Assembly (NCBI GenBank): GCA_965202585.1
Contig: OZ241826.1
Span: 69,130,001 to 69,194,000 of the forward strand
Direction of reading: 5' to 3'
Source of the DNA: Thalia democratica
Lineage: Eukaryota
Length of the DNA stretch: 64,000 nt
The translations under genes were made by a program, and so were the position numbers. Positions within the stretch are counted from its first letter, which is position 1. Every line of letters starts with the position of its first letter. Below the pieces are notes generated by a model. The model did no database searches. It saw only the letters and a program-made list of their open reading frames with translations, and was not told the origin of the DNA. Positions 14,990-52,540 of this stretch are shown in pieces.

Positions 14990-16766
14990 TAGTGATGTAC
15001 CGGACTCACTATCCGGGTCCTGGTCCGGCCGGATATTGCCATTTTTGTCTGATATCCGGATCCGGCCGGATTCTAATTTGAAAAAAAAGTCCGGATCCGG
15101 TTCCGGCCGGACTCTAATTTGAAAAAAAAGTCCGGATCCGGTTCCGGCCGGATTCTAATTTGAAAAAAAAGTCCGGATCCGGGTCCGGCCGGATCCTAAC
15201 AGAGATCCGGCCGGACCCGGATCTAATTAGTAAAAAAGAGCATACTGAAAAGTATTTTTTCAAAAACAAACCCTGTGAAAATTAATAAGAGTCATTTTCG
15301 TCAGTTAAAATTAAACACCTACCGTGATTGGCTCATTTTGTACACGTGACTAATTTACATTTGTTTACATTTAAACTATAAATAAGCATTTCATGAAATG
15401 CAACTCTTTACATATGTTGTAAAATTGAAAACTTTGGAATGAATACTTGCATTATTTATTGTTTAAAGTTGAGCTCAGAGAATATTTAGAGTTAACACGG
15501 TTGAATGTACGAGCCAATGAGAATCATATGACGAAATGTTTCAAACTAAGTACTGATGCAACAAAACATCAGAACATGACAGGCAGTTTATATGTAAGCA
15601 GTTAGTTAGTTTGGTGTGTAGCTTGAAGCAACAAAATATCTTGAACGTTTTTGTGAATGCTTATTGTAAGTAGTGTTTCGTCTTAAAAGTGAATATTTCA
15701 ACAGGTGTTTAATTGTTTAAATATTTAAGCCACGTTTATAGCTTAATAGTTGATTAAAAATTTTACAGTTTCTTGTTTACTAAAAGTTTTATTTAGTTTT
15801 TTGTTTTAAGTCTTTTGATATAGATTTAAATAGCTTCCAGTTTTTTAAGTGTTACCAAAGTAATTAATAATTTTGTATATGCTAGTATTTCTTGTTGTGT
15901 TTTATATAAAAGATTCATCACTCAAAACTGTTGTGTCTGATTATAGAAAGTAGTCTCAGTTAGAATATAGTATTTGTTAGATATTAATCAAATAAGGTAG
16001 GATTTAATTATGATGGGTAGTACTAATAAGTTAAGTGTACCACAATCAGTCCACAACTTTACTACCAAATTGTCAACTTTTGCTAGCTGTTCTACTGATT
16101 ATTAGATTAAAATAATTTTTCAGTTTTTAAAAACCTCATTCTGACTCAGGCTTGTTTATACTCACTATAGCTAGTTTTATTGACTTAAACAGTGGCAACC
16201 CTGCTAGTTTGAAAATTTTTGGGAATTTTAGAAAATCTTGGACTGTCTCAGGCTAGTTTAGTTTTTTATAAAAACTCAGGCTAGTTTTCTTTTAGATTTT
16301 GAATGAGTTTGAGCTGATCCAGTTTTCAATATTTTGTAATTTTCTAGTGTATTTTTTCAAGAACTTGATTTAAGATTTTTAATTGTAAATAGTACCTAAA
16401 TTTGTAAACCTTGTGGCTAGCTGTTCTACTTATTATTAGATTAAAGTTCTTTTTTTTCAGTTTTTAAAAACCTCATTCTGACTCAGGCTAGTTTATACTA
16501 GTGATGTACCGGACTCACTATCCGGGTCCGGCCGGATATTGCCATTTTTGTCTGATATCCGGATCCGGCCGGATTCTAATTTGAAAAAAAAGTCCAGATC
16601 CGGTTCCGGCCGGACTCTAATTTGAAAAAAAAGTCCGGGTCCGGTTCCGGCCGGATTCTAATTTGAAAAAAAAGTCCGGATCCGGTTCCGGCCGGATTCT
16701 AGTTTGAAAAAAAAGTCCGGATCCGGGTCCGGCCGGACCCGAAATTGTGGGTCCGGTACATCACTA
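14990..16766 (+). mobile_element. Composite non-autonomous hAT element, copy A
   Basis: TIRs tagtgatgtaccgga / tccggtacatcacta; TSD gttttaac (14982-14989, 16767-16774); 41-bp subterminal repeats; a second left TIR at 16499. Confidence 0.9.
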
Positions 16767-18996
16767 GTTTTAACACGTTTCGATTTTTTAGTAGTTGTTT
16801 TCACTTAAAATTAATTCCAATGCACACAAGTGTACAAAGATGCTCATATTTTAAACCACTTTTTATTTACTGCTTTAAGTTAGATTAAGTTTAGTTTATG
16901 CATAAATGTCTAACATTATTGTATCTAAATGTAATTTCTAAGTGTGTTCAGAAACATTTAAAACAATATATATGACATAAATTAAAATATTTTTGTTATG
17001 TACATATTTTTATTTTCAAAAGATGTTTTTAGGCAAATGAAGTTAATTGTTATGCATTGCATACTAATATAAACAATTGCTGTTTTTTGAAACTATCAAT
17101 TTATTACAAGCGAGATTCAAGGATGGTAAATTTATTAAGTTTGTACATTGTGAATCAAATAAGTTCAAAATTAATTTTATAAATAACTAAACATTGCTAC
17201 AAACTCAGACTATGACCATTTGAAGACTTTAAATCTCAGGCCAATTTAGTCTTTTTTTCAGTTATTTACTTGAATTGCTTTTTGTATACGAAAATATCAG
17301 GCTAGTTTTTTGTCACTAAGGCTGGCTTTTTTTCTTTAAAGAGTGGCAAATTAAATTTATGATGGATGTTTTGTTCAATACACAGTGTTGGTTTGAATTA
17401 TAATATATGTTAAATTTTAAATCTTGCAGCTGAAACAATTTGAAATACTGTTTATACTACTGTATATAAGTGTGAATAATCAGTGTTGCCAAAAAACTTG
17501 AGTCCCGGTAAATCTTGGAATCTGAAAATTTATACTTAAATAATCTGAAAAAAGTTTGAATTTGAGAATTTTTGAAAAACCTGGAATTTCAAACAATTTT
17601 TACATGTAAAGTAATGAATTTTGATTTGAAACAAAAATTTACCATATAAATATTTTTATTAAAAACCACATTTAAAGTAGCTTAAGAGCATCTTTTCAAA
17701 ATTGATACTATGTTTAAAAGATTTTTTTTACCTTTAGTTTAATTTTATACTGAAAACAGAAGAAAAAAATTGTACTTTCACAAACTTTATATTGGTGCAT
17801 TGCACCTTTGCTTTAAAAAATCTATTTACTTATTGCTGTGCTTTGCATTGGAACTAAACCTAGAAATTTTTCTAAAATTTCAAAATTAGTAAAAACAACT
17901 CAAATTAAAATTCTCATATAACAATATATGTTTTATCAGCGCTCTCATCTTAACAAATTGATTTAAGTCCTAATTTGATTTATGCTGCTTTATAATCTTC
18001 AGGCATTTCTTAAATACGACTTTTGTTGTCAGTAAAGAAATAAACAAAAATATTATACTACCGTCAACATAAATTCTTTTTTTTCGTTTCTTGCAATAAC
18101 TCCTAAATAACGTTTTTCAATACTTATAGCTCGTCTTATATTTCACATTTACTCTTTTCAAATGCAAGATTTTTATTGCAGATAAAGAATTGCTATAGAT
18201 CTTAATAAAAAGTTAGTTATTCTTCTTCATTAAAGGTTTAATAAGCTTTTATACTTTTGTTTAAAGTGTTTAATAAACCGTAATTGTCCATTGAAACTGA
18301 CTTGTAACACTTTTATTTGATTTATATTTAATTCACTGTTAATAAACTTCGTTATTTCTTTATTTTGTGAACTTTCTTTTAAACAAGCTTGCCAAACAAG
18401 TAGGCTAGTTTAAAAGTTTGAAGAATACAGACTAGGTTAAACTTGTTTAAGACATTTTTTGAAGACTCAGGTGTGTGTAAAACTTTTATTTTAAACACTT
18501 TGAATTTTCAGAATAGTTTTTACAACCGTAATGTAGTTTACTAAATGCATTTTTCTTTCTTGTCTTCTTACATATTGTGTACTTTTTTATAATGATGATA
18601 TTTCAATTAGGTATTTAAGCTTGATTAACACTAAGTTTTATGCTTTTTCAACTTTTAATTAACTTGGCTGGTTTGATAAAACTTAGACATTTTGCTGTTA
18701 AAGTGGCAACCATGTAAAATACTAATTAATTACTAATAAGGTATTTTATTAAAGTATTTGAGAGTTAATCATGTTAAAAAATTGTTTTATATTTTTACAT
18801 ACCAAATAGGTATTAGATTTATATTGTTAATTAACTACTGAATTTTTTAAAGAGTGTAAACTATTTTAGATACAATTTTTTTTTTTAATAAATATTTTTA
18901 GAAACATGAAAAAAGGGTTAATAGTACAAACAAGGCATAAAAGTGACCTCTAAAATGTTTTTAAGCTCGAATTTTTATACAGAGTTAGGTTATAAG

Positions 18997-20693
18997 TAGT
19001 GATGTACCGGACTCACTATCCGGGTCCGGGTCCGGCCGGATATTGCCATTCTTGTCTGATATCCGGATCCGGCCGGATTCTAATTTGAAAAAAAAGTCCG
19101 GATCCGGTTCCGGCCGGATTCTAATTTGAAAAAAAAGTCCGTGTCCGGTACCGGCTGGATTCTAATTTGAAAAAAAAAGTCCGGGTCCGGCCGGATCTAA
19201 TTAGTAAAAAAGAGCATACTGAAAAGTATTTTTTCATAAACAAACCCTGTGTAAATTAATAAGAGTCATTTTCGTCAGTTAAAATTAAGCACCTACCGTG
19301 ATTGGCTCATTTTGTACACGTGACTAATTTACATTTGTTTACATTTAAACTATGAAATAAAAATTTCATGAAATGCAACTCTTTACATATGTTGTAAAAT
19401 TGAAAACTTTTGAATGAATACTTGCACTATTTATTGTTTAAAATTGAGCTCAGAAAATATTTAGAGTTAATACGGTTGAATGTACGAGCCAATGAGAATC
19501 ATATGACGAAATTTTCAAACTAAATACTGATGTAACAAAACATCAGAACATGACAGGCAGTTTATATGTAAGCAGTTAGTTAGTTTGGTGTGTAGCAATG
19601 TAGCTTGAAGCAACAAAATATCTTGAACGTTTTTATGCATGCTTATTGTAAGTAAAGTTTTGTTTTAAAAGTGAATATTTCAACAGTTGTTTAATTGTTT
19701 AAATATAAAAGCCAGGTTTATAGTTTAAAAGTTTATTAAAAATTTTACAGTTTCTTGTTTACTAAAAGTTTTATTTAATTTTTAGTTTTTTGTTTTAAGT
19801 CTTTTGATATAGATTTAAACAGCTTCCAGTTTTTAAAGTGTTACCAAAGTAATTAATAATTTTTTGTATGCTAGTATTTCTTGTTGTGTTTTATATAAAA
19901 GATTCACAACTCAAAACTGTAGTGTCTGATTATAGAAAGTAGTCTCAGTTAGAATTTAGTATTTGTTAGATATTAATTAAATAAGGTAGGATTTAATTAT
20001 GATGGGTAGTACTAATAAGTTAAGTGTACCACAATCAGTCCACAACTTTACTACCAAATTGTCAACCTTTGCTAGCTGTTCTACTGATTATTAGATTAAA
20101 GTAATTTTTTCACTTTTTAAAAACCTCATTCTGACTCAGGCTTGTTTATACTCACTCTAGCTAGTTTTATTGACTTAAACAGTGGCAACCCTGCTAGTTT
20201 GAAAATTTTTGGGAATTTTAGAAAACCTTGGACTGCCTCAGGCTAGTTTAGTTTTTTATAAAAACTCAGGCTAGTTTTCTTTTAGATTTTGAATGAGTTT
20301 GAGCTGATCCAGTTTTCAATATTTTGTAATTTTCTAGTGCATTTTGTTCAAGAACTTGATTTCAGATTTTTAATTGTAAATAACACCTAAATTTGTAAAC
20401 CTTGTGGCTAGCTGTTCTACTTATTATTAGATTAAAATTTTATTATTTTCAGTTTTTAAAAACCTCATTCTGACTCAGGCTAGTTTATACTAGTGATGTA
20501 CCGGACTCACTATCCGGGTCCGGCCGGATATTGCCATTTTTGTCTGATATCCGGATCCGGCCGGATTCTAATTTGAAAAAAAAGTCCGGATCCGGTTCCG
20601 GCCGGACTCTAATTTGAAAAAAAAGTCCGGATCCGGTTCCGGCCGGATTCTAATTTGAAAAAAAAGTCCGGATCCGGGTCCGGTACATCACTA
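18997..20693 (+). mobile_element. Composite non-autonomous hAT element, copy B
   Basis: Same TIRs; TSD gttataag (18989-18996, 20694-20701); colinear with copy A. Confidence 0.9.
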
Positions 20694-26785: not shown

Positions 26786-26838
26786 AAAATAAGAAAATTG
26801 TTTTATACTTTAGTTTGTTCAAGATGATGTTTCTTAAC

Positions 26839-28581
26839 TAGTGATGTACCGGACCCACAATTTTGGGTCCGGCCGGACCCGGATCCGGACTTTTTTTTCA
26901 AACTAGAATCCGGCCGGAACCGGACCCGGACTTTTTTTTCAAATTAGAATCCGGCCGGAACCGGACCCGGACTTTTTTTTCAAATTAGAGTCCGGCCGGA
27001 ACCGGATCCGGACTTTTTTTTCAAATTAGAATCCGGCCGGATCCGGATATCAGACAAAAATGGCAATATCCGGCCGGACCCGGATAGTGAGTCCGGTACA
27101 TCACTAGAATAAACTAACCTGAGTCAGAATGAGGTTTTTAAAAACTGAAAAAAAAGAACTTTAATCTAATAATAAGTAGAACAGCTAGCCACAAAGTTTA
27201 CAAATTTAGGTGTTATTTACAATTAAAAATCTGAAATCAAGTTCTTGAACAAAATACACTAGAAAATTACAAAATATTGAAAACTGGATCAGCTCAAACT
27301 CATTCAAAATCTAAAAGAAAACTAGCCTGAGTTTTTATAAAAAACTAAACTAGCCTGAGGCAGTCCAAGATTTTCTAAAATTCCCAAAAATTTTGAAACT
27401 AGCAGGTTGCCACTGTTTAAGTCAATAAAACTAGCTAGAGTGAGTATAAACAAGCCTGAGTCAGAATGAGGTTTTTAAAAACTGAAAAATTACTTTAATC
27501 TAACAATCAGTAGAACAGCTAGCAAAGGTTGACAATTTGGTAGTAAAGTTGTGGACTGATTGTGGTACACTTAACTTATTAGTACTACCCATCATAATTA
27601 AATCATACCTTATTTAATTAATATCTAACAAATACTAAATTCTAACTGAGACTACTTTCTATAATCAGACACGACAGTTTTGAGTGATGAATCTTTTATA
27701 TAAAACACAACAAGAAATACTAGCATATACAAAATTATTAATTACTTTGGTAACACTTTAAAAACTAGAAGCTATTTAAATCTATATCAAAAGAAATAAA
27801 ATAAAAAACTAAAAATTAAATAAAAATTTTAGTAAGCAAGAAACTGTAAAATTTTTAATAAACTATTAAACTATAAACCTGGCTTAAATATTTAAACAAT
27901 TAAACACCTGTTGAAATATTCACTTTTAAGACAAAACACTACTTACAATAAGCATTCACAAAAACGTTCAAGATATTTTGTTGCTTCAAGCTACACACCA
28001 AACTAACTAACTGCTTACATATAAACTGCCTGTCATGTTCTGATGTTTTGTTGCATAAGTATTTAGTTTGAAACATTTCGTCATATGATTCTCATTAGCT
28101 CGTACATTCAACAGTACTAACTCTAAATATTCTCTGAGCTCAACTTTAAACAATAAATAATGCAAGTATTCATTCAAAAGTTTTCAATTTTACAACATAT
28201 GTAAAGAGTTGCATTTCATGAAATGCTTATTTATAGTTTAAATGTAAACAAATGTAAATTAGTCACGTGTACAAAATGAGCCAATCACGGTAGGTGTTTA
28301 ATTTTAACTGACGAAAATGACTCTTATTAATTTTCACAGGGTTTGTTTTTGAAAAAATACTTTTCAGTATGCTCTTTTTTACTAACTAGATCCGGTTCCG
28401 GCCGGATCTCTGTTAGGATCCGGCCGGACCCGGATCCGGACTTTTTTTTCAAATTAGAATCCGGCCGGAACCGGATCCGGACTTTTTTTTCAAATTAGAG
28501 TCCGGCCGGATCCGGATATCAGACAAAAATGGCAATATCCGGCCGGACCCGGACCCGGATAGTGAGTCCGGTACATCACTA
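26839..28581 (-). mobile_element. Composite non-autonomous hAT element, copy C (inverted)
   Basis: Reverse complement of copies A/B; TSD ttcttaac (26831-26838, 28582-28589); absent from the equivalent site in U4 (~36260). Confidence 0.9.
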
Positions 28582-28599
28582 TTCTTAACACAACTTTAA

Positions 28600-29560
28600 C
28601 CATTTAGTTTTTTGTCAATTCACAAAAGTCTACTCTCTGTCGCCCATCGTATCAAAGATAAATATTTGGTTCAAACGACAGTAAAACACATCAAACTTGA
28701 ATGTCCTCGGGTGCTCGTCAATACTGTCTTTTTGTAAAATTTTCTCGGCGAAACAAACCTGTTGCACGTTGAATTAAAAACTTCAAGCTTAATTGAAAAA
28801 TTCTGCCGTAAATATTTATCATAACGACAATTTTGTGATTCTTCCTTTACGTCGGACATATTTGACCGTGACAGACTTTCGCAAACCAGAAATTTTTCCT
28901 CACTGTGCAGGTCCCACTACTTATTGCTTCACTTCGCCACTTTTCTCCATTTGTTATCTTTAAAACTCAACGCATGAGTCAAGATCACCGAAAACGGGTC
29001 CAACGTACCCTTCAACAACGCACACACTTTATGCATAAATGCACCCGCGCAACAAGGTCTACGGTAACTAGGCATACTTGCCATAACTTCCCACACTTTG
29101 GTAGCAGCTGAGTTCTTTCTTTTTTTGTAATCTCTGCTAGCAAATATTTCAAACTTGCTTTAGTTGCAGTATAGATTGGTAGTCTTAGATTTGCTTAACC
29201 TGTTTGTTTGTTTATAATTAATTTAACAAGACTAGTGAAATCATCACTTGCGGTAAAACTGCGGCTTATCAAAAACACAATTAAAAGCAGATACTGATAA
29301 CTAGGCGATCTTTCATAAATTGACTGCTTTCGTTTTTGAGATGTTTATCAACTTTGTGATTTAATTCAATGTTCTTTATTGTTGTCTATCTTCATCACGA
29401 AATCGATCATTAATTCATTACCAGAAAATATTTTTGCTAAAAGGTTAACGTCTAGTTCAAAAAGTTTATGGAGTCAGCGAATGTTGAGAAAAAGCGTTGA
29501 AGAAAACTGATCAACAGCTTGAATGAACTGGAAAGCTTGAAAAAGCGAGAATGAAAATGA
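28600..29560 (-). pseudogene. Decayed minus-strand ORF of the unit, unknown product
   Basis: One frame reads AFMHKVCALLKGTLDPFSVILTHALSFKDNKWRKVAK*SNK*WDLHSEEKFLVCESLSRSNMSDVKEESQ...FTVV with only two internal stops; GC is higher than in the flanks. Confidence 0.45.
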
Positions 29561-30072
29561 CCAGTGTAACATTTTAATATCAGTTGTATCTCCTATGTAA
29601 TTGTATATATTTTTTAATTTTTAACTTCTATCTATGAAAGTATGCTCTTTTCTAATGCAAATACTAATTTCTCCTATTCATTAGGTTACAGTATTCCTAA
29701 AGTTGTTTACATTATTTATATGAAATTTAATACAAGTATTTTTACTTGATACTGCGTAGCAGAGTAACTAAAATGTAAGTAATTAATAATTCTGAACAAA
29801 ATTTATTTTTTAACTTCAAATAATTTTTGGCGATCTATTAAAAGGCAACAATGCCGCATAGTAAAAATTAAAGCTAAACTTTTTCATTAAAGCTTATATT
29901 AGTTCTAACTTAATTATTGTTAAATATAGTTTAAAAAACAATGATTATTCTAATAATAAATTTTATGTTTATTCAATTAACCAGACCAATTTTGAAAAGT
30001 ATAATATGAAACATTAGAAGGTTTATTATTCTTAAAAAATTAGCTTTTTTATACTTTTATCTAAGTTTAAAG

Positions 30073-31586
30073 CAGGGAACGGCTGACAATTGGTTCTCCG
30101 GGCTAAATTCCAAGTTTCAAAATTTTCCGCGGGCCGCAGTTTAGTTTAAGTTAGTTTTTTACTTTTAATCGGGTTTAGTCACATTTAGCTACTTATAGGG
30201 GTGTGGCCTGGCCTATTTAAAATGCATTTTTGTTTTAGAGTCTAAAGTTAATATTTAATATAATACTTTTCTCCTAATATTATTTCTATCATTATTTATA
30301 AATTCATTTAAATAAAATAACTGTTTTGTTCTTTTCATTATCACCTAACTCTTTAACAATGAAATAAGCAATCTATCAGACGTTTTGTGTTTGAAAAAAA
30401 CTTACACGATACACAACAATAAAAGATCAACTACAAACACAGTGACGCAATAAAACAATTAATAAAATTTGATATCCTTTTCTAGTTCGGTTTCATAAAA
30501 TGTTGTTTTTTAGTTTTTCTTCCAGTCTTTTGAATTTTGTAGATAGCCATTTCACGTAGTCATTTACAAGCAACTCTCACTGACATCTGTAAAAAACTAA
30601 GCTCCAAAAACAGATGTGGATCACTTTAAACACTTTTTATATAATTAAGTTCTATTTATTTAGATAACATTTTATTTTAAGTTGTTATATATCTTTATAT
30701 GAAAATAATCTTTATATATTCAATACATTGCACAGAACATATTTAAAGTTTTAGTTATTTTGTTAAGTTAACTAAAATATAAATAAAACTTATTTTATTT
30801 TAAACAGCGCAAGGTTTTATTTAGAACCTTTAAATACTTTAATAATCTAATTAAAGTTTTCTTGGTTGCAACTTTTTCAAACAAAAATGTTACAATCATT
30901 TACATCAAACCAGTCAGTGTTTTTAAAAGATAAAAAAATCTAAAAAAGCCAAGATTGAAAATTTTTGCCATTTAAACAAAATAATTTAAAAACTGAAAAA
31001 ATATTTTAATTTTAGTTAATAGTTTTTTATTTCTTTTAAATGTTTCTTTACAAATTTCAATATAGTTATAAAAAAATTATAAAAGAAACATTTTTATAAT
31101 CACATGTCAAAGCAAAGACCTAAATTATAAAGAATTGACATGTTAGTAAAACACTGTAATGTTTGTACACATAAAAACCTTTATACTAAATAAAATTACT
31201 TATTGCATTGTCAACTTACTGAATCTAAGAAACTTTCCAATTCAAGTACGTAAGCTTTTGTATACAGTCCAAGATTTTGTTGTTTGAAAGGAAAAGCAAA
31301 ATCTAAACTCTAAAGAAAAACTGCTAGAACTAGTATCTGTCTTTTTTCACATATTTAAGCTTAAACAGTAAAGATAATAAATGGTTTTTTAAATAATATC
31401 CAGAAACTTAAAACAAAACTAATAAAAATACTGTTTTTCTTTTATTTCAAAAAGTCAATTTAAAATATAGTTTTGTTTAGCGGGCAAAATTTACATGCTC
31501 GCAGGCCGCAGCTTTTTTTTTGCGGGCCACAAATTTACACTTCGAGGGCTGCAGTTGGCCCGCGGGCCGCAGTTTGCCGACCTCTG
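30073..31586 (-). mobile_element. Charlie-like hAT element in U3 (carries the empty retrozyme site)
   Basis: Same ends as 1056-2838; single tatatctttatatga at 30748-30762. Confidence 0.7.
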
Positions 31587-33354
31587 GACTAAAACTTCAA
31601 CAGTTTTGTTCAAATAGCAGCCAAGTACATTGTCACTGCATCCATCTATTGCTGAGGAGAGTATCTGTAAAGCAAATGAAAATTATACTTTGTAAAGTTT
31701 TTATATCATAAACACATCATTAATATTTTATACATATCAAGCATAAAAGACATATTTAAATTAAAATTATTTTAAACTCTTCATCCAAACTTATATATTT
31801 TTAAAACGTTGTAAAGAAGTTCAAATAGTTTCAACTAATCACTACTTTATATTTATTTAAGTTACAACCAAACATGTGCACGACTGAAAAAATTCGGATG
31901 ATTCAAATACTTTTACAAAATTATATCAAAAATAATAAATATTTGAAAAAATAAAAAGCGTATGTAGATCTCATTAATATCTACAAGCCATTTTTTCCTT
32001 TCTACAAAACTTTCAATATATTTTTTGAAATGATTTAAACAAACTTTTAAATATAATTTTTTTCAGTAGTTTTAAAAAAATTCAAATAAAAATTAAAAAC
32101 TTTACAAAAGTAAAAAATGACTAGTAGATATTGATAAGACCTACTACATATGTATTAACTTTTAAAATATATATTACTTTTGAAGATATAGTCTGTTAAA
32201 TTTTTTTAAAGAATTTGGATTGTCATTGAACCCAATCAAACAAGTTTAAAAAAAGAAAGCCCCTTTTTTGTAAAAAAAAAAACTTTTGTAATAGTTTTAC
32301 GATTGTGGTATACCTTATATATATAAAAATATTGTGTTTATTAACCTTAAACACATAGGTAGATAGACAAAAAAACAAAAATAGACCATTAAAGCAGCAG
32401 GTGAGGCGACATTCGAACGAACAGTTTGAAGCAGAATTTTACAAAATGTTTCTGGCTCAACAAATGATACAATTAAACGAGCTGATTTTGTAGTGTGAAA
32501 ATTATTTTACTGTATAAACTTCATAGAAAAACTCGCTTACAATAATAAATGAAAATTTTAAGGCTTAAATCAAAATATTTTTTTTTAGTTTCAAAAAGTA
32601 AAACTGATTATATCAGTATTTTGCTTGAGGCCATTGGGAATCTTTTTAGAATTTTTTAAGTTCAAGTTTAAAAAAAATATATGTACCATTTTTTTAGTTA
32701 GAATTTTTTGTATAAATTTAAAACTTACTTTAAATATATATTTTCTTTCTTTTTATTTCTGTATTTTAATATTTTTTAATAGTATATTGAAAGATTTAAA
32801 AAAACTAAAACTTTGGGTTAAAAACTTCTATATAAAAATTCCTGCAAGTAGAAAAGTAGTCAAAAGTAAACTAAGTTTGAAAGATAAATTTGTAAAAGTT
32901 TGTAGAAGATTTTAAAAAAAAACAAGGAATTTTGGAATTTGGAAGATATACTGGAAGTAATTTTTTTTTCACCCAATTTAATATTGGGGCTTTCTATAAT
33001 AAACCTATAGAACTCGCCAACTTTTAAATGCTTATCTTAAAAGTTTATTTAAATTTAGTTAAGCGGTAAAAAGTATCCGACAACTGTGATAGAATTCTAC
33101 AAAGTGAAATCAACTTGTAAAAAATAAAGTCAATTTCCCCATGACCTTAATCATCAGACAGTAAACTGCGGTCTACGGCATACCTAAAAGCTAAAAATAT
33201 TTATTACAACAATTGTTATAAAAATTTTCGTACAAACCTAACAATTCAGTTCTTAATCTAGTTATTATCCTTAAACATTTATTATTGCTTCTTTTATCAT
33301 GTTTTTGATAAAGAAGAACAGTTTTAAATTGATAAATACAACCGTTTTGAATTA

Positions 33355-33600
33355 ATTTGGGCCCATGAAAGACTTTTTTCTATACAGCGAGGCCTGCAGA
33401 CAACTATTTATAGAAAAACTGATCCGCGACTTATAAAAGGCTGCTGCCTCCTGATGATATAAAAAAAACCTGTAAGCTGCAAACCTAGGGCGCTTCTGAT
33501 TGGTTAATGTTTTACTTATCGAAAAATCGATTAAGTCCTTAAACTTGTAACTAAGCATTTAATTTATCTAGTGAGTTTGATTATGACGTTTTCACCAAAC
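33355..33600 (+). promoter_or_regulatory. Candidate Pol II promoter of the orphan gene (conserved in all four units)
   Basis: tgggccc, TATA-like tataaaa, reverse CCAAT (ctgattggtt) and tgacgt motifs 100-340 nt upstream of the ATG. Motif inspection only. Confidence 0.3.
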
Positions 33601-33694
33601 TGATATTCAAAACATATTTTAATACGAAAAACATATAAACAAACTGTAACAAGTGTTTTTATACTTTGATTGCATTCCAAATATTAAAATCAAT

Positions 33695-34921
33695 ATGCCA
33701 AGTGGTCAAAAGACTTCGGATTTTCTTGATCAAATCATGAAACGAATGGACGAGACAATTGGGTCGATCGGCGCATCTAAACAAGTTCATAAAGTGGAAA
33801 AACTTCCTAAGGAGGGACCTGAAGATCGTGAAAAGCTTGTTCTAAGGTTCTATCGATTCGAGGCCCCAATTGTCAACTGCGCGAACAAAGAAGAGCTGCT
33901 GGAACATTTTGAGAAAAGGTGCGAGTGGAAGGTTATGCTCCCTTCAGCTCTTCAAAACGATGAAGCTAAGGAAAACATCAAAAGTGAAAAAGTCAAGTCT
34001 GATGAGATTATGTTTACTCTGGACGAAGTTTTAAAGCCGTGGTCGAAGGCGAGCATGGAGAAGATGCGAATGATGAAAGAAAGAGAGCAGGCAGAGGTGA
34101 CGCGACTGTGCAGGCCGGATTACGAGTGCGACCCGGAAATCAAGACAACGCAGAGCAGGTTCCTTTCAGACGCGGGACTTTTCAAGCCGTGCGCGAGCAC
34201 CACGCAAAAGAAACGGGTCTCAAAGTACTCAAAACTCGAGGAAGGAGGGAACAAGAAAGCTGTGCTAAAAGAAGATGTTTCTTCAAAAAATCCGATTGTT
34301 GCGAAGCGTAACATTTGCGGTTTCAACAGGAGAAAAAAGAGTCTTCGGGAGTTTGTCGCCAGCAAGAGTGGGTTTAAAATGTTCAACACCAACAGAAGCA
34401 AAGCTTGCAACAATTTGAAAGCTCCTTCTACAGTGAAAAGACAGCTTGCTTACAAAAACTCTCAGTTGCAATCCAGCAAACAATGTTCCGAGCAGGAACA
34501 CCAGGAAAGGGCTTACAAAAAACGTCGTTTTCTCATAGAACAGCACAATCTGAACAAGCAGATGACAAAGTGTAAGAGCGATCAAAACCCATTCAAGCCT
34601 GATTTCACTTGCCGGACGAAAACGAGGCCAAGCTGTTTCAACCCACGAAAACGAAAATGTGAATGGTTAGAAGAAAGAGCTAATAAAAAGCGTGCTATTG
34701 AAAATAAGTTCGATTCCCAGGCAAATGTGAAACAAACTTCTACAAAACCGATCGATGCAAAATACGAGAAGAGCTTGAAAAGGTTTATGGACAACACTAA
34801 AGCAAATTTGGTCAAATACCAGAAATCCTCGACAAAATTGATCGGTTATGTTCCTCTGACCAGTTCTCGCAGACGAAAGTTTAAGTCTAAGATCTCGTTC
34901 AGAAATAACAAGTTAGTTTAA
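33695..34921 (+). CDS. Orphan protein, 408 aa, basic K/R/S-rich C-terminal half (copy U3, intact)
   Basis: Uninterrupted ORF from the first ATG (MPSGQKTSDF...) to TAA; the track's start at 33653 is a GTG. No domain recognised. Confidence 0.75.
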   Translation: MPSGQKTSDFLDQIMKRMDETIGSIGASKQVHKVEKLPKEGPEDREKLVLRFYRFEAPIVNCANKEELLEHFEKRCEWKVMLPSALQNDEAKENIKSEKVKSDEIMFTLDEVLKPWSKASMEKMRMMKEREQAEVTRLCRPDYECDPEIKTTQSRFLSDAGLFKPCASTTQKKRVSKYSKLEEGGNKKAVLKEDVSSKNPIVAKRNICGFNRRKKSLREFVASKSGFKMFNTNRSKACNNLKAPSTVKRQLAYKNSQLQSSKQCSEQEHQERAYKKRRFLIEQHNLNKQMTKCKSDQNPFKPDFTCRTKTRPSCFNPRKRKCEWLEERANKKRAIENKFDSQANVKQTSTKPIDAKYEKSLKRFMDNTKANLVKYQKSSTKLIGYVPLTSSRRRKFKSKISFRNNKLV

Positions 34922-36289
34922 GCACGATGTTAATTTTGAAGTCGTTATTAAAGTTGAAATAATTTTTTCTTATTCAAATTTGAATTTCAATAAGGTAAAG
35001 TATAAGTATTTTAGTTATATAAGTTGATTGTTTTAATTCAGTTTTTTTTGTTAATTTACTTCAGACATTCTACCCATTTTTTTGTTTAAAAAACTTTGTT
35101 CCTAAAAAAAAATTTTTATGCTAAATGATAAGCAGTTGTTGCAAGTAGTTTTTGAGTTGATAAATTTTTTAAAAAATATAAGTTATTGATTTAAAATGCT
35201 AGTGTCAGGTTTTAAAAAATTACTTTATTGCTTTTTTTCACGTTTAATTTATTTCTAATTAACATTTTCAAATGTTAGTGTCAGATTTTAAAATTCCAGG
35301 TTTTTAAATAATATTTTTTAATGTTAGTGTCAGGTTTAAATACCAGGTTTTTTAAGTAGTAATAATTTTTAATGTAACTGTCAGGTTTAATATACTAGGA
35401 TTTTTAAGGAAACAATTTTTAAAATTAGTTTCAGGTTATTTTTTTAAAGTCAGGTAAACTCAGGTAAAGTCAGGTGGTGAGGTTTACAGCTTTGAAATAC
35501 CATTAAGGTATTTTAAAGCTGTGAAAAGTGCACACTTAATAACAACTGAAGATAAAAAAGTATACATCAACTAACTTCAATAATTTTCAATTGTTATTAT
35601 TTCCTTCACGTGGTCCTCGCTGTAAGTACAGTGTTAGAAACATTAATTAAAAACATAAATAGTTAATGTTTTTGAACTTGTTTTTAACACTTGAAACCAA
35701 AGTGCACAGTTATTTGTTTTACATTCTCAAGTACTAACTTTAAATTAAAACTTCTTAAATTATGATTTAAATTAGAAAAAACATACCAATTTTTAATAAA
35801 ATGAAGTTTTATCATTTTTAAATTTGGTCAACTGTAGCTAAGGTTATGAGTTTTGGCCATTTAGGGTTTTTTTTTTCACAAAAAAAAAGCGATGGTCACT
35901 AAACACAATAATTTTAAAGCATATAGATTAATCAACTATTTTTTAAGAATAACTAATTAGTTTGTATAACCTGTAATAGGTGTATTTTATTAAACGTACA
36001 CTTTTTCATATTTAAATATTTGCAATGGTATGTAATGCAAGGGCGTTTTTTTAATTGGTTTCCTGTTTCAAAAAATATTTTAAAAATATCACTAAAAACG
36101 TTGTTTATTGACTTTGTTTTGGTTAATTATTTTGGTTTATACTAAACTTTTCGAAAAAACGTTAATACAAGAATTTCATATAGTCCTTAACAAGTAAACC
36201 ACAACTGTTAGAATATAAGAAAATTGTTTTATAATTTAGTTCGTTCAAGATGAGGTTGATTAACACAACTTTAACCATTTAATTTTTGT

Positions 36290-37230
36290 TAATTCACAAA
36301 ATTCTACTCTCTGTCGCCCATTTATCGTATCAAAGATAAATATTTGGTTCAAACGAAAGTAAAACACATCAAACTTGAATATCCTCGGGTGCTCGTCAAT
36401 ACTCTTTCCTTGTAAAATTCTTTTAGCGAAACAAGCCTGTTGGACATTGAATTAAAAACTTCAAAGCTTGATTTGAAAATCCTGCCATAAATATTCATCA
36501 TCTCGACAATTTTGTGATTCTTCCTTTACGTCGGACATATTTGACCGTGACAGACTTCCGCAAACCAGAAATTTTTCCTCACTCTGCAGGTCGCACTACT
36601 TATTGCTTCACTTTGCCACTTTTCTCCATTTGTTATCTTTAAAACTCAACGCATGAGTCAAGATCACCGAAAACGGGTCCAACGTACCCTTCAACAACGC
36701 ACACACTTTATGCATGAATGCAACAAAGTCTACGGTAACTAGGCATGCTTGCCATAACTTCCCACAATAGCAGCTGAGTTCTTTCTTTTTTGTGATCTCT
36801 GCTAGCAAATATTTCAAACATACTTTGGTTGCAGTATAGATTGGTAGTCAAAGATTTGCTTAAGTTGTTTGTTTGTTTATAATAAATTTAACAAGACTAG
36901 TGAAATCATCACTTGCAGTAAAACTGCAGCTTATCAAAAACACAATTAAAAGCAGATACTGATAGCTAAGCGAACTTTCATAAATTGACTGCTTTCGTTT
37001 TTGAGATGTTTATCAATTTTGTGATTTGATTCAATGATCTTTACTATTGTCAATCTTCATCACGAAATCGATCATTAATTCATTACCAGAAAATATTTTT
37101 GCTAAAAGGTTAACGTCAAGTTCAAAAAGTTTATGGAGTCAGCGAATGTTGAGAAAAAGCGTTGAAGAAAACTAATCAGCAGCTTGAATGAACTGAAAAG
37201 CTTGAAAAGGCGAGAATGAAAATGACCAGT
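36290..37230 (-). pseudogene. Decayed minus-strand ORF of the unit, copy U4
   Basis: Homologous to 28600-29560; includes the track ORF 36608-36817. Confidence 0.4.
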
Positions 37231-38374
37231 GTAACATTTTAATACCAGTTGTATTTCCTATGTACTTGTATATATTTATTTATTTTTTAACTTCTTTCTA
37301 TGAAAGTATGCTCGTTTCTAATGCAAACACTAATTTCGCCTAGTCATTAGTTTACAGTATTCCTAAAGTTGTTTACATTATTTTCATGAAATTTAATACA
37401 AGTATTTCACTTGATACTGCGTAGATCAAGGAACGATAAATTTTAGTAATTAATAATTCTGAACAAAATTTAATTTCAACTTAAAATAACTTTTGGCGAT
37501 TTATTAAAAGGCAACTATGCCGCGTAATAAAAATTAAAGCTAAACTTTTTTCATTAAAGCTTATATTAGTTTTAACTTAACTATTGTTAAATATAGTTAA
37601 AAAACAATAATTAGTCTAATATTAAATTTTATGTATTATCGATTAACCATACCAATTTTGAAGAGTATAATATGAAACATTAGAAGGTTTATTATTCTTA
37701 AAAAATTTATCTTTTTTAATCTTTTATCTGAGGTTTAAAGCAGGGAACGGCTGACAATTGGTTCTCCGGGCCAAATTTCAAGTTTCAAAGTTTTCCGCGG
37801 GCCGCAGTTTTAGTTTTAGTCAGTTTTTATTTTTAATAGGGATTAGTCACATTTAGCTACTTATAGGGGTGTAGCCTGGTTTATTTAAAATGCATTTTTA
37901 TTTTAGTGTCTAGAATTAATATTTAATATAATACTTATCTCCTAATATTATTTCTATCATTATTATAAATTCATTTAAATAAAATAAATGTTTTGTTCTT
38001 TTCATTATCTCATTACCTAACTCTTAAACAATGAAATAAGCAATCTATCAGACGTTTTGTGTTTGAAAAAAACTTACACGATACACAACAATAAAAGATC
38101 AACTACAAACACAGTGACGCAATAAAACAATTAATAAAATTTGATATCCTTTTCTAGTTCGGTTTCATAAAGTGTCGTTTTTTTTCTCTTCATTCCAGTC
38201 TTTTGAATTTTGTAGATGGCCATTTCACGTTGTCATTTACAAGCAACTCTCACTGACATCTGTAAAAACTATGCTCAAAAAACAGATGTGGATCACTTTA
38301 AACAATTTTTATATAATCAAGTTCTATTTATTTAGATAACATTTTATTTTAAGTTGTTATATATCTTTATATGA

Positions 38375-38628
38375 TTAACAAAAAACATCGGCGAAAGTCA
38401 GCAGAGCAGAAGCCTTTCGGTAGAAACTTGTGGTCTGATGATCGAATTTGCGTGATCAACCCTATTGTTAAACTTGAGCTTGTCTCACGGCAAACGAAAG
38501 TCCAGGCTTCTGCTCTGCTGACTTTCGCCGATGTTTTTTGTTGAAGACTGATGAGTCCTAATAAGGACGAAACCGGTCTCAGTCTACCGAAACTTGTGGT
38601 CTGATGATCGAATTGGCGTGATCAACCC
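38375..38628 (+). mobile_element. 254-bp retrozyme / non-autonomous Penelope-like insertion, copy 2
   Basis: TSD tatatctttatatga at 38360-38374 and 38629-38643; direct repeat gaaacttgtggtctgatgatcgaatt at 38423 and 38589; ~40-bp inverted repeat at the 5' end. Confidence 0.82.
38541..38585 (+). ncRNA. Minimal type I hammerhead ribozyme motif
   Basis: CTGATGA (38548-38554), stem II GTCC/GGAC with taataa loop, GAAA, palindromic stem III ACCGGT, GTC triplet (predicted cut after 38578). Stem I has only 2 clear base pairs. Confidence 0.7.
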
Positions 38629-41608
38629 TATATCTTTATATGAAAATAATCTTTATATATTCAATACATTGCACAGAACATATTTAAAGTTTTAGTTAAT
38701 TTGTTAAGTTAACTAAAATATAAATAAAACTTATTTTATTTTAAACAGCGCAAGGAATTTATTTAGAACCTTTAAATACTTTAATAATCTATTTAAAGTT
38801 TTCTTGGTTGCAACTTTTTGAAACAAAAAAGTTACAATCATTTACATCAAACCAGTCAGTGTTTTTAAAAGATAAAAAAATGTAAAAAAGCCAAGATTGA
38901 AAATTTTTGCCATTTAAACAAAATAATTTACAAACTGAAAAAATATTTTAATTTTAGTAAATAGTTTTTTATTTCTTTTAAATTTTTCTTCACAAATTTC
39001 AATATAGTGATAAAATAATTATAAAAGAAACATTTTTGAAACATGTCAAAGCAAAGACCTAAATTATAAAGAATTGACATGTTAGTCAAACACTGTAATG
39101 TTTGTACACATAAAAACCTTTATACTAAATAAAATAACTTATTGCATTGTCAACTTACTGAATCTAAGAAACTTTTCAATTCAAGTACGTAAGCTTTTGT
39201 ATACAGTCCAAGATTTTGTTGTTTGAAAGGAAAAGCAAAATCTAAACTCTAAAGAAAAACTGCTAGAACTAGTATCTGTCTTTTTTCACATATTTAAGCC
39301 TAAACAGTAAAGATAATAAATGGTTTTTTAAATAATATCCAGAAACTTAAAACAAAACTAATAAAAACACTGTTTTTTTTATTTCAAAAAGTCAATTTAA
39401 AATATAGTTTTGTTTAGCGGGCAAAATTTACATGCTTGCAGGCCGCAGCTTTTTTTTTTTGCGGGCCACAAATTTACACTTCGAGGGCTGCAGTTGGCCC
39501 GCGGGCCGCAGTTTGCCGACCCCTGGACTAAAACTTCAAAAATTTTGTTCAAATAGCAGCCAAGTACATTGTCACTACATCCATCTATTGCTGAGGAGAG
39601 TATCTGTTAAGCAAATGAAAATTATACTTTGTAAAGTTTTTATATCATAAACACATCATTAATATTTTATACATATCAAGCATAAAAGACATATTTAAAT
39701 TAAAATTATTTTAAACTCTTCATCCAAACTTATATATTTTTAAAACGTTTTTAAGAAGTTCAAATAGTTTCAACTAATCACTATTTGATATTTATTTAAG
39801 TTACAACCAAACATGTGCACGACTGAAAAAATTCGGACGATTCAAATACTTAAACAAAATTATATCAAAAATAATAAATATTTGAAAATATAAAAAGCGT
39901 ATGTAGATCTCATTAATATCTACAAGCCATATTTTCCTTTCTACAAAACTTTCAATATTTATTTGAAATGATTTCAACAAACTTTTAAATATAATTATAT
40001 TCAGTAGTTTAAAAAAAATTCAAATAATAATTAAAAACTTTACAAAAGTAAAAAATGACTAGTAGATATTGATAAGACCTACTACATATGTATTAACTTT
40101 TAAAAAATATATTGATTTTGAAGATATAGTCTGTCAAACATTTTTTAAAGAATTTGGATTGTCATGCAACCCAATCAAATAAGTTTAAATAAAGAAAGCC
40201 ATTTTTTGTAAAAAAAACTTTTGTAATAGTTCAACGATTGTTGTATACTTTATATCTATATAACTATTGTTTTTATTAACCTTAAACATAAAGATAGACA
40301 AAAAAAAACAAAAATTAATTATTAAAGTAGCAGGTGAGGCGACATTCGAACGAACAGTTTGAAGCATAATTTTACAAAATGTTTCTGGCTCAACAAATGA
40401 TACAATCAAGCGAGCTGATTTTGTAGTGTGAAAATTATTTTACTGCATAAACTTCATAGAAAAAACTCGCTTACAATAATAAAAGAAAAATTTAAGGCTT
40501 AAATCAAAATGTTTTTTTTTTAGTTTCAAAAAGTAAAACTAATTATATCAGTATTTTGCTTGAGGCCATGGGAAATCTTTTTAGAATTTTTTAATTTCAA
40601 GTTTAAAAAGAATATATCTATCAATTTTATAGTTAGAATTTGTTAGTATGAATTTAAAACTTACTTTAAATATATATTTTCTTTCTTTATATTTCTGTAT
40701 TTTAATAGTTTATTGAAAGATTTAAAAAGAACTAAAACTTTAGGTTAAAAACTTCTTTATAAAAATTCCTGCAAGTAAAAAAGTAGTCAAAAGTAAACTA
40801 AGTTTGAAAGAGAAATTTGTAAAAGTTTGTAGAAGATTGTTAAAAAAAACAAGGGGAACATATACTTGAAGTAATTTTTTTTTTCACCCAATTTAATTCG
40901 GGCTTTCTATAATAAACCTATAGAACTTGCCAACTTTTAATGAATATCTCAAAAGTTTATTTAAATTTAGTTAAGTGGTAAAAAGTGTCCGATAACTGTG
41001 ATAGAATAATACAAAGTAAAATCAACTTGTAAGAAATAAAGTCAATTTCCCCATGACCTTAATCATCAGACAGCAAACTGCGGCCTACGGCATACCTAAA
41101 AGCTAAAAAAATAATTATTACAACAATTGTTATAAAAATTTTCGTAAAAACCTAACAATACAGTTCTTAATCTAGTTATTATCCTTAAACATTTATTACT
41201 GCTTCTTTTATCATGTTTTTGATAAAGAAGAACAGTTTTAAATTGGTATATACAACCGTTTTGAATTAATTTGGGCCCATGAAAGACTTTTTTCTATACA
41301 GCGAGGCCTGCAAACAACTTTTTATAGAAAAACTGATCCGCGACTTATAAAAGGCTGCTGCCTCCTGATGATATATAAAAAATCTGTAAGCTGCAAACCT
41401 AGGGCGCTTCTGATTGGTTAATGTTTTACTTATTTAAAAATCGATTAAATCCTTAAACTTGTAACTAAGCATTTAATTTATCTAGTGAGTTTGATTATGA
41501 CGTTTTCACCAAACTGATATTCAAAACATATTTTAATACGAAAAACATAAAAACAAACTGTAACAAGTGTTTTTATACTTTGATTGCATTCCAATTATTA
41601 AAATCAAT

Positions 41609-42847
41609 ATGCCAAGTGGTCAAAAGACTTCGGATTTTCTTGATCAAATCATGAAACGAATGGACGAGACAATTGGGTCGATCGGCGCATCTAAACAAGT
41701 TCCTAAAGTCGAAGAACTTCCTCAGGAGGGACCTGAAGATCGTGAAAAGCTTGTTCTAAGGTTCTATCGATTCGAGGCCCCAATTGTCAACTGCGCGAAC
41801 AAAGAAGAGCTGCTGGAACATTTTGAGAAAAGGTGCGAGTGGAAGGTTATGCTCCCTTCAGCTCTTCAAAACGATGAAGCTAAGGAAAACATCAAAAGTG
41901 AAAAAGTCAAGTCTGATGAGATTATGTTTACTCTAGACGAAGTTTTAAAGCCGTGGTCGAAGGCGAGCATGGAGAAGATGCGAATGATGAAGGAAAGAGA
42001 GCAGGCAGAGGTGACGCGACTGTGCTGGCCGGATTACGAGTGCGACCCGGAAATCAAGACAACGCAGAGCAGGTTTCTTTCAGACGCGGAACTTTTCAAG
42101 CCGTGCGCGAGCACCACGCAAAAGAAACGGGTCTCAAAGTACTCAAAACTCGAGGAAGGAGGGAACAAGAAAGCTGTGCTAAAAGAAGATGTTTCTTCAA
42201 AAAATCCGATTGTTGCGAAGCGTAACATTTGCGGTTTCAACAGGAGAAAAAAGAGTCTTCGGGAGTTTGTCGCCAGCAAGAGTGGGTTTAAAAAGTTCAA
42301 CACCAACAGAAGCAAAGCTTGCAACAATTTGAAAGCTCCTTCTACAGTGAAAAGACAGCTTGCTTACAAAAACTCTCAGTTGCAATCCAGCAAACAATGT
42401 TCCGAGCAGGAAGACCGGGAAAGGGCTTACAAAAAATGTCGTTTTGCCATAGAACAGCACAATCTGAACAATCAGATGACAAAGTGTAAGAGCGATCAAA
42501 ACCCATTCAAGCCTGATTTCACTTGCCGGACGAAAACGAGGCCAAGCTGTTTCAACCCGCGAAAACGAAAATGTGAATGGTTAGAAGAAAGAGCTGATAA
42601 AAAGCGTGCTATTGAAAATAAGTTCAATTCCCAGGCAAATGAGAAACAAACTTCTACAAAACCGATCGATGCAAAATACGAGAAGAGCTTGAAAAGGTTT
42701 ATGGACAACACTAAAGCAAATTTGGTCAAATACCAGAAATCCTCGACAAAATTGATCGGATTTGTTCCTCTGACCAGTTCTCGCAGGCGAAAGTTTAAGT
42801 CTAAGATCTCGTTCAAAAATAACAAGTTAGTTAAAGCACGTTGTTAA
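41609..42847 (+). CDS. Orphan protein, 412 aa (copy U4, intact)
   Basis: Uninterrupted ORF, near-identical to the U3 copy with a 4-residue longer C-terminus (KARC). Confidence 0.75.
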   Translation: MPSGQKTSDFLDQIMKRMDETIGSIGASKQVPKVEELPQEGPEDREKLVLRFYRFEAPIVNCANKEELLEHFEKRCEWKVMLPSALQNDEAKENIKSEKVKSDEIMFTLDEVLKPWSKASMEKMRMMKEREQAEVTRLCWPDYECDPEIKTTQSRFLSDAELFKPCASTTQKKRVSKYSKLEEGGNKKAVLKEDVSSKNPIVAKRNICGFNRRKKSLREFVASKSGFKKFNTNRSKACNNLKAPSTVKRQLAYKNSQLQSSKQCSEQEDRERAYKKCRFAIEQHNLNNQMTKCKSDQNPFKPDFTCRTKTRPSCFNPRKRKCEWLEERADKKRAIENKFNSQANEKQTSTKPIDAKYEKSLKRFMDNTKANLVKYQKSSTKLIGFVPLTSSRRRKFKSKISFKNNKLVKARC

Positions 42848-44210
42848 TTTTTAAGTTTTAATCAAAGTTGAAGTAGTTTTTACTTATTCAAAATTTAATT
42901 TTTCAAAGATTTAGTTATAAGTATTTTAGTTAGATAAATTGATTGTTTTAATTCTGTTTTTTTTTTGTTAATTTTCTTCAGACATTCTACCCATTTTTTT
43001 TGTTTAAAAAACTTTGTTCCTAAAAAAAAATTTTATGCTAAATGATAAGCAGTTGTTGCAAGTAGTTTTTGAGTTGGCAAATTTTTAGAAAATACAAGTG
43101 ATTGATTTAAAATGTTAGTGTCAGGTTTAAAAAAATTACTCTTTTGCATTTTTTCACGTTTAATTTATTTCAAGTTAACATTTTTAAATGTTATTGTTAG
43201 GTTTTAAAATTCCAGGTTTTTAAATAATATTTTTCAATGTTAGTGTCAGGTTTAATATACTAGGTTTTTTTAAGGAAATACTTTTGAATATTAGTTTCAG
43301 GTTATTTTTTTAAAGTCAGGTAAACTCAGGTAAAGTCAGGTGGTGAGGTTTACAGCTTTGAAATACCATTAAGGTATTTTAAAGCTGTGAAAAGTGCACA
43401 CTTAATAACAACTGAAGATAAAAAAGTATACATCAATTAACTTTAATAATTTTCAATTGTTATTATTTCCTTCACGTGGTCCTCGCTGTAAGTAGAGTGT
43501 TAGAAACATTAATTAAAAACATAAATGGTTAATGTTTTTTAACTTGTTTTTAACACTTGAAACTAAAGTGCACAGTTATTTGTTTTACATTCTGAAGTAC
43601 TAACTTTAAATTAAAACTTCTTAAATATGATTTAAATTAGAACAAAGATACCAATTTTTAATGAAATGAAGTTTTATCATTTTTAAATTTGGTCAACTGT
43701 AGCTAAGGTTATGAGTTTTGGCCATTTAGGGGTCAATTTTTTTCACAAAAAAAAAACGATGGTTAATAAACAAAATAATTTTAAAGCATATAGATTAAAC
43801 AACTAATTTTAAAGAATAACTAATTAGTTTGTATAATCTGTAATAGGTGTCTTTTATTAAACTTACACTTTTTCATATTTAAATATTTACAATGGTATGT
43901 AATGTATAAAAAACTGTCTTGAATATTTCGTTGAACTAAATTTAGTTTATTTTAAACACATGCTCATACTTTTCACAACTAACGTATATTTAACTTATTA
44001 AAGTTATTTTTATTTAGTTTTTAAACTTATTCTTGATTTAAAACTTGCTAAAAGTTATTGAAACCGTAATTGGTTTTATTGCTTAATTTAAATTACTGTT
44101 GGTTCCTTATAACTTTAGCTATTTACTTAGGACTAAATTAAAGTACTACTATTTTTTCTTTGACTATCTATAACCAATAAGCTAAAATAATTTAAAAAAT
44201 GGTTCAGTAT

Positions 44211-51850: not shown

Positions 51851-52540
51851 TTAATCACGTCGGAGATCAAACTTTTCAGATTTTACACCATCCTTTTTGA
51901 TAACATACACATAAACACTGTCACCAGTAGTGATATCTCTTTCAGCCGCAGAGATAAAACAATCTATGCAAATTCTTCTAGCTCTTTCTTCGGTCAGAGG
52001 AGGTAGTTCACTCTGCATATTTTTTCCTCCAATTTGGTTATCTAGCAGAGGTTGAATGAGCTCATTGGCTGCTCCTCCAGCTCTATATTTTTCTCTTTCA
52101 TAAGATCCAACTGGGTCATAAGAATAAACACATCCTTTTCCATCTTGATCAAGTCCAGCAACAATGTTATACACATAATACGGGAAGAACCTCCTGTAGT
52201 AAAGCATTTTAGATAGCATGGAAGCCACTGCTGGGGTTGAAGGATAATCCCCATGATCGTGCTGGTATGTTTCAACTTTGTTCATAGCATGCTTTTTGAA
52301 TGTCAAGATGTCTCCTTCGAATCCCGCCATAGCAACAACTGTAGACGGGGTGAGCTGAATGGTTTTTGGATGATCTCTGCTAAAGATTGTAAATCCCAAG
52401 CTCAAACGCGAGTCAGCTGCAATCACTGAAAAGTCATCTCCTGCAATTGCCATTATGCTGCCACCATTCATTGCATACGGGTTGAAGCGATGTTGTTTCT
52501 CCCCACAATGCACAATATCATGGTTGTATTTGTATGCCAT
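51851..52540 (-). CDS. PSMB1: Proteasome subunit beta type-1 (20S beta6), 229 aa, CDS without introns
   Basis: RFNPYAMNGG, LYYRRFFPYYVYNIVAGLD, GCVYSYDPVGSY, QPLLDNQIG, FISAAERDITTGD and C-terminal LRRD match the PSMB1 family over the full length. Confidence 0.95.
   Translation of the reverse strand: MAYKYNHDIVHCGEKQHRFNPYAMNGGSIMAIAGDDFSVIAADSRLSLGFTIFSRDHPKTIQLTPSTVVAMAGFEGDILTFKKHAMNKVETYQHDHGDYPSTPAVASMLSKMLYYRRFFPYYVYNIVAGLDQDGKGCVYSYDPVGSYEREKYRAGGAANELIQPLLDNQIGGKNMQSELPPLTEERARRICIDCFISAAERDITTGDSVYVYVIKKDGVKSEKFDLRRD

Follow-up and report, generated by a model that had tools for sequence, protein, structure and literature searches.

In described ribozymes of the hepatitis delta virus type (HDV-like), helix P2 stacks on P3 with at most one intervening base (PMC4908430, PMC5640933), and large J1/2 domains are able to speed cleavage (PMC4908430). 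Mismatches within P2 and P3 are tolerated by R2 ribozymes (PMC3774820). In the fungal HDV variants of Li and Breaker (2017), P4 contains an E loop and a single base separates P2 from P3; two of these examples cleave in vitro (PMC5640933). We analysed 64,000 nucleotides of Thalia democratica DNA (assembly GCA_965202585.1, contig OZ241826.1, positions 69,130,001 to 69,194,000 of the forward strand; this whole stretch is called the window), which holds four copies of an intron-free orphan gene. A candidate HDV-like ribozyme lies behind each copy, and the same architecture recurs behind an unrelated amplified RING-H2 gene and inside a Mutator-family DNA transposon. What makes the locus unusual is this ribozyme candidate, which a DNA transposon has in common with two amplified host genes.

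The candidate resembles the fungal E-loop variants in its HDV helix order, an E-loop-like internal loop that takes the place of part of P4 and a non-canonical P2/P3 junction. The fungal junction contains one extra base and the pair at the cut is usually C-G, whereas here a hairpin of 67-73 nt is inserted and the pair is G-U; the candidate also differs in its long P1.2 and P4 and in its animal host (PMC5640933). With the ribozymes of R2, RTE and L1Tc it shares a mobile-element carrier, a large J1/2, a 7-bp P1 and a catalytic C in J4/2, but those ribozymes are located at the 5' end of retrotransposons, where they release the element RNA, while the candidate follows the open reading frame (ORF) on its 3' side, both in a DNA transposon and in host genes (PMC3774820, PMC6765202). 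Theta ribozymes of phages, unlike the candidate, have no P4 (PMC10879173). The hammerhead in the 3' untranslated region (UTR) of Clec2 is likewise a self-cleaving RNA, as predicted here, that follows the stop codon in a multigene family of the host; its ribozyme class differs, and the cited section shows no transposon source for it (PMC6765202). Searches of the open-access literature listed no paper that, by title or abstract, describes an HDV-like ribozyme tied to Mutator or another DNA transposon. They also yielded no description of a candidate of this architecture, and the alignments of PMC5640933 may hold longer P2/P3 inserts. If the element cleaves, the HDV fold would be widened and a DNA transposon would gain a ribozyme. 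The locus would also offer a testable case of a ribozyme taken over as the 3' signal of a host gene, with natural dead copies as controls.

Structure and conservation of the 3' ribozyme candidate

Homology between paralogues climbs again about 500 nt past the stop codon. The 3' element found there was 0.88-0.91 identical in 9/9 paralogues compared, against 0.57-0.82 upstream and 0.45-0.92 downstream, and was as conserved as the ORFs of the same paralogues (86-91% identical). Its folding z score was -6.3, and 0/200 shuffles were as good. Behind copy 4 the candidate spans 232 nt (43342-43573, + strand), with the predicted cut just 5' of 43342; its counterparts behind copies 3, 2 and 1 lie at 35476-35707, 13573-13804 and 6700-6931, all on the + strand. 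It is preceded by a leader with repeated TCAGG motifs (43110-43341, + strand), the last ~20 nt of which also stand before the Mutator and RING versions.

The part order is HDV-like, with P1, a J1/2 hairpin, P2, P3 with a 7-nt L3, P1.1, P4, J4/2 and the P2 partner. In copy 4 these parts correspond to P1 (43342-48/43481-87), the P1.2 hairpin (43349-91), P2 (43394-99/43568-73), P3/L3 (43469-79), P4 (43496-557) and a predicted catalytic C at 43563. The extra hairpin (43401-67) lies between P2 and P3, and the element is therefore a variant candidate rather than a canonical HDV-like member; the sequence of this hairpin differs between versions while its length stays similar. All seven pairs of P1 can form (7/7), the first being the G-U pair at the cut. 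P2 can form 6 bp, with 99% of cells paired but no pair that changes on both sides, and one C-G pair of P1.1 is possible in 16/17 rows, without covariation. J4/2 reads C-N-A-A, in which C43563, the predicted catalytic C, is followed by a conserved A; the C is found at 35697 behind copy 3 and is also present in the RING and Mutator versions. The long P4 is topped in the orphan and RING versions by an internal loop, AGTA/GAA, which we take to be an E loop and which is absent in the Mutator versions. In an alignment of 17 copies, pairing holds in 93% of cells, with two-sided changes in 12 pairs (shuffled 4.5). This count leans in favour only, because the copies are related and the structure had been derived from the first of them. 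The letters of L3, P1.1, the first G of P1 and the C of J4/2 rank among the most conserved in each of the three contexts. We regard it as somewhat more likely than not that the 3' element self-cleaves.

The strongest outside check on the HDV-like core is its retrieval from metagenome and viral contigs. A 17-letter core pattern from the element, run on these contigs, found at least 146 loci, with 114 distinct contexts among the matches listed, to which the following counts refer. Results showed a Watson-Crick outer P3 pair in 94/114 contexts and a full 7-bp P1 within 60 nt in 82/114 (shuffled mean 7.9, maximum 16). The J4/2 motif, which was no part of the search pattern, was present in 70/114, with GAAACTAA in 52 of these 70, and a complete canonical HDV fold in 60/114. 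The candidate and this unnamed metagenome family have identical letters in P3/L3, J1.1/4 and J4/2; they differ in that the metagenome family is compact and canonical, and of 125 prokaryote and viral loci that matched a pattern with the inserted hairpin, 0 had the full fold. The metagenome and viral family (L099-L244) is in itself a widespread E-loop HDV-like group, with some members beside tRNA genes, and is mostly missed by Rfam.

Occurrence in the orphan family, a RING gene and a Mutator transposon

The orphan-type core had 25 matches in the genome, of which 24 follow a family copy and one is solitary. The 14 intact proteins encoded by element-bearing copies form one clade together with one outside protein (SH-aLRT 98, quick tree). 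A search reaching about 1.3-1.5 kb from the older copies L023-L025 and L028-L050 turned up no element, and neither did five stretches of 6.5-7 kb beside older copies. One ribozyme copy is split by an inserted long terminal repeat (LTR) retroelement (L022:3233-3325, L250:8329-8500), and its far half is among the 24 matches. A decayed solo copy of the element on contig C5 (L076:4278-4553) has shared flanks, and no family gene was found upstream of it.

The element architecture also occurs 250 nt past the stop codon of an unrelated RING-H2 gene, whose 2035-bp units are arrayed in tandem close to the starts of C9 (from about 313-506 kb onwards) and C10 (near 450 kb). The RING core gave 314 matches (control 0), which implies roughly 290 tandem copies about 99% alike. 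This gene is lineage-restricted as well, with four unnamed outside clusters at 49-99%, and its 2035-bp unit contains no histone-tail motif. A looser core pattern retrieved 14 further sites, and 8 of them have the whole architecture 223 nt past the stop codon of a Mutator-family transposase (PF00872, 21.5 bits vs a cut-off of 21). The carrier is a 7.35-kb element with 73-bp terminal inverted repeats (TIRs) and 9-bp target site duplications (TSDs) in 5/5 copies. The family is young, its copies being 97-99% alike and dispersed (e.g. L273:1253-8600; L260-L264, L270-L272, L411, L425, L429). Another 40 non-family sites (about 70 listed) comprised 8 Mutator copies or remnants, 1 RING fragment and otherwise unrelated sequence, and neither these 40 nor 20 other candidate sites revealed more host genes with the element.

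The orphan, RING and two Mutator versions have the same part order and four different pairing P1 helices. In the simplest history, the 3' element of a Mutator copy would have been deposited behind the ancestral gene of the young orphan subfamily and, separately, behind the RING gene. The direction is taken from the mobility of the transposon, and we regard the transposon as quite probably the source of the element, not its recipient. A search for the TIR of this Mutator family only, and for its transposase, found neither near the orphan or RING loci.

A different HDV-like core with a 7-bp P1 candidate was seen on C7 at 64.3-66.1 Mb (L268 near 6514), in a 16.4-kb tandem unit with at least 26 copies; the stretches scanned had no rRNA match.

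The orphan gene family and its protein

The original prediction for this locus, made from the letters of the window, had listed four gene copies with two intact, and we found exactly these, starting at 4939, 11849, 33695 and 41609. Copy 3 (33695-34921, + strand; 408 aa, stop four codons early) and copy 4 (41609-42847, + strand; 412 aa) are intact. Copy 1 (4939-6167, + strand) is broken, with codon 143 changed to TAA and 4 nt deleted near 5775, and has an in-frame 6-nt deletion. Copy 2 (11849-13089, + strand) has the same TAA and 4-nt deletion, and the two therefore descend from one broken copy. The proposed tandem unit of ~7.8 kb stands for copies 3 and 4, which lie start-to-start 7914 nt apart in a head-to-tail repeat of 7.7-7.9 kb (28585-43904, + strand; shift 7675-7941). 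It does not extend to the others, where the spacings are 6910 and 21846 and copy 2 shares just ~0.7 kb upstream.

ORF GC was 0.42-0.43 vs 0.23-0.28 in the 1-kb flanks, in agreement with the earlier reading (36 of 60 bases G/C at 34081-34140). The ORFs were also described as CpG-rich, but this is mostly a consequence of GC, and the observed/expected ratio of 0.97-1.04 vs 0.84 for the whole window is ordinary for the genome. Two host ORFs met by chance (ClpB-like and BTB-like, labelled by eye) had ratios of 0.95 and 1.21. GC at third codon positions (GC3) was 0.49 in the orphan ORF vs 0.86 and 0.77 in these two conserved-looking host ORFs. With higher GC3 and similar CpG in host ORFs, the orphan composition is no pointer to foreign DNA.

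Searches of the genome gave 48 matches by DNA and 102 by protein. Merged within 2 kb, these make at least 67 loci, a lower bound from listed starts, on C1, C2, C4, C6, C8 and two small contigs. Broken copies akin to the most distant member, L048, were seen at L052-L054 (C10, C817), outside the 67-locus count. An ORF of at least 400 aa is retained in 14/30 of the closest loci and one of at least 250 aa in 19/20 distant loci fetched. Protein identity between subfamilies falls to ~30%, and several subfamilies have their own unnamed relatives outside the genome (quick tree). The dN/dS ratio (omega) was 0.49 for 14 intact young copies (p 7e-16 vs omega 1), 0.40 when two older copies were added (p 2e-39) and 0.58 for subfamily C, the tests being made with kappa fixed at 2 and two degrees of freedom. 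These values indicate purifying selection on a family in which many copies have been lost. The flanks are common over kilobases with boundaries that differ from copy to copy, as would be expected if DNA segments were duplicated. We thus take the orphan genes to be a real family of an ordinary kind. The earlier view of it as a lineage-restricted coding gene under birth-and-death amplification is borne out by the few unnamed outside relatives, by the intact and dead paralogues of mixed ages and by an omega that is not neutral overall. Amplification of orphan genes that encode basic proteins is common; what this one adds is its 3' element.

A family-specific block, likely a promoter, precedes the ORFs (TGTAACTAAGCATT ... 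TGACGT; 41460-41503, + strand, and also 33546-33589, 11700-11743 and 4790-4833). It lies ~110-150 nt before the ORF and is kept across subfamilies only ~30% identical in protein; its TGACGT part resembles a cAMP response element (CRE) half-site. The block pattern had 30 matches in the genome (control 1), 30/30 beside family loci. As the pattern was drawn from family loci, this is evidence of conservation and family specificity, not of function. We lean towards a single cell type, probably of the germline or early embryo, in which the motif would drive every subfamily.

The protein has a pI of 9.7. Its N half is neutral, with 38 basic and 38 acidic residues, and its C half has 55 basic and 17 acidic, which matches the mixed-charge and basic parts recognised before; the RKRK and RRRKFK stretches, similar to nuclear localisation signals, are both present. 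Lys+Arg amounts to 18-24% among family members, under the very high level that sperm nuclear basic proteins have along the whole chain. The motifs K/R-L-V-L-K/R-F and W-K/R-V each occur in 49/51 family sequences, and basic clusters in 50/51. No domain had been recognised in the original prediction, and none emerged here: Pfam gave no domain match (best E 0.005, in 1/26 members) and no HMG or histone H1-type match in 26/26 members, a PDB sequence search gave 0 matches, and the ESM Atlas nothing at 0.9. The structure prediction and Foldseek search suggested earlier gave isolated helices at low confidence for the whole protein and the N-terminal part (AlphaFold pLDDT 52 and 60, pTM 0.18 and 0.25) and no Foldseek match at E 0.001. 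Outside relatives amounted to 6 clusters among 1530 candidates (0/15 members named). A profile search of 1.84 billion proteins gave 50 hits; 10 were looked up (0/24 members named), and 12 sequences inspected all resemble family members or fragments. The most distant paralogue as query found 0 homologues of 1955.

The basic C half, the motifs, the intron-free gene, the undepleted CpG, the promoter-like block, fast change and local amplification together point to a nuclear protein, largely disordered, that would act in the germline or early embryo, and a germline-type basic nuclear protein is the likely prediction. The nuclear or nucleic-acid-binding role proposed earlier is thus plausible. We somewhat favour a mostly disordered protein that would enter the nucleus, its basic half acting on DNA or chromatin and its short motifs (K-L-V-L-R/K-F, W-K-V) contacting a partner. 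The genes for sperm nuclear basic proteins of Drosophila are similarly basic and fast-changing, with repeated tandem amplification and many losses; they differ in having HMG domains and testis expression, whereas the orphan has 250-414 aa, a neutral N half and no domain (PMC9917458). By domain content and charge the orphan protein does not qualify as a sperm basic protein of the HMG or H1 type.

Proposed role of the element and its alternatives

We propose, with a probability of about 0.5, that this is a basic-nuclear-protein family in which the youngest subfamily acquired a ribozyme from a transposon and has retained it as a 3' element that cuts the transcript. More tentatively, the Mutator transposon may carry an active HDV-like ribozyme of new architecture that two unrelated amplified host genes domesticated for their transcript 3' ends. 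HDV-like cleavage leaves an upstream product that ends in a cyclic phosphate (PMC5640933), and such an end would lie ~500 nt past the stop codon. The cut would end the transcript or stop read-through into the next copy, rather than silence the gene. With a poly(A) site upstream, it would be a co-transcriptional cut limiting read-through between tandem copies; with one downstream, the tail would be removed and expression lowered, as for Clec2 (PMC6765202).

Several observations weigh against this proposal. According to a reporter study, the 5' OH left by a ribozyme cut is poorly handled by the termination nuclease, which weakens a terminator role (PMC2702688). Poly(A) hexamers are not conserved, with none in copy 4 and unshared places in 12/13 others, and the sequence therefore does not decide where the cut falls relative to the poly(A) site. 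The catalytic-position C is present in 22/26 copies listed, and two element copies behind intact ORFs have A instead; together with the element-free older subfamilies, this means that the element is not essential to the family, and as those subfamilies amplified without it, it is not needed for amplification. In P3 two C-G pairs and L3 are kept, and the outer pair is T-T, or else has to involve an invariant A on the far side of the inserted hairpin. P2 shows two-sided change in 0/6 pairs, hence no compensation. The 67-73-nt insertion between P2 and P3 recurs in all five versions parsed, and 2/5 RING copies of one stretch miss the P1.1 G. Rfam found no HDV family match at the element; of the 146 outside loci, 15 were scanned and gave a single CPEB3 hit, below threshold. 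Omega, calculated from intact copies only with gene conversion not modelled, was 0.79-0.92 in subfamily B, barely off neutral, and the proposed role of the protein is read from charge and gene layout.

The same family may instead carry a 3' element that no longer cleaves, a ribozyme-derived fold kept for protein binding or stability. The non-canonical P2/P3 junction, the C-to-A change after two intact ORFs and a conserved leader upstream of the cut site, unneeded for catalysis, would fit this, but we think it rather unlikely, since L3, P1.1, the first P1 G and the J4/2 C belong to the best-kept letters, and they match a natural family with a canonical fold. Less likely again is a selfish germline system, an arms race of driver and suppressor in which the ribozyme lowers expression through removal of the poly(A) tail. 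The family has been amplified locally several times independently, has many dead copies and changes fast, all of which would agree with it, as would the likeness to the amplified sperm basic protein genes of Drosophila (PMC9917458) and the Clec2 hammerhead precedent (PMC6765202), whereas an overall omega below 1 argues against it.

Two further alternatives would tie the genes themselves to mobile or viral DNA. The gene units could be Pack-MULE-like cargo or accessory genes of Mutator spread by transposition, given that the element stands at a similar distance past the stop codon in all contexts (transposon 223, orphan about 500, RING 250 nt). We consider this improbable: neither a TIR of the Mutator family nor a transposase was seen close to orphan or RING loci, duplication boundaries vary between copies, older subfamilies have no element, and orphan copies cluster locally while Mutator copies are dispersed. 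A viral or Polinton origin of the ORF appears very improbable; the original prediction had raised a viral or mobile-element one. The ORF is intron-free with GC above its flanks, but 168 pattern matches in viral contigs yielded 0 confirmed relatives, host ORFs have higher GC3, the window holds no virus-like neighbours, and the protein has no likeness to the Mutator transposase. The suspected mobile-element link is not supported for the ORF and holds for the non-coding 3' element, which the original prediction had not listed.

Other readings of the element were set aside during the analysis. A ribozyme-defined, retrozyme-like repeat unit was rejected after one RING array end examined was found to stop inside the ORF, not at the cut site. 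The element as a dispersed high-copy repeat was likewise rejected, and spliced leader (SL) RNA, microRNA (miRNA) hairpin and hammerhead readings were dropped on recognition of the HDV-type core.

The window contains further features. A hammerhead ribozyme core lies at 38533-38601 (+ strand; Rfam HH9, E 0.011, under the gathering score), within a repeat of very high copy number that has inserted into the copy 4 unit. A CpG-depleted proteasome beta subunit gene forms a single ORF at 51851-52540 (- strand) and adjoins a strongly CpG-depleted block at 53-59 kb. A 1.7-kb repeat is present in three copies (15095-16769, 18997-20683 and 26836-28581), with GC-rich 41-bp tandem units at its ends.

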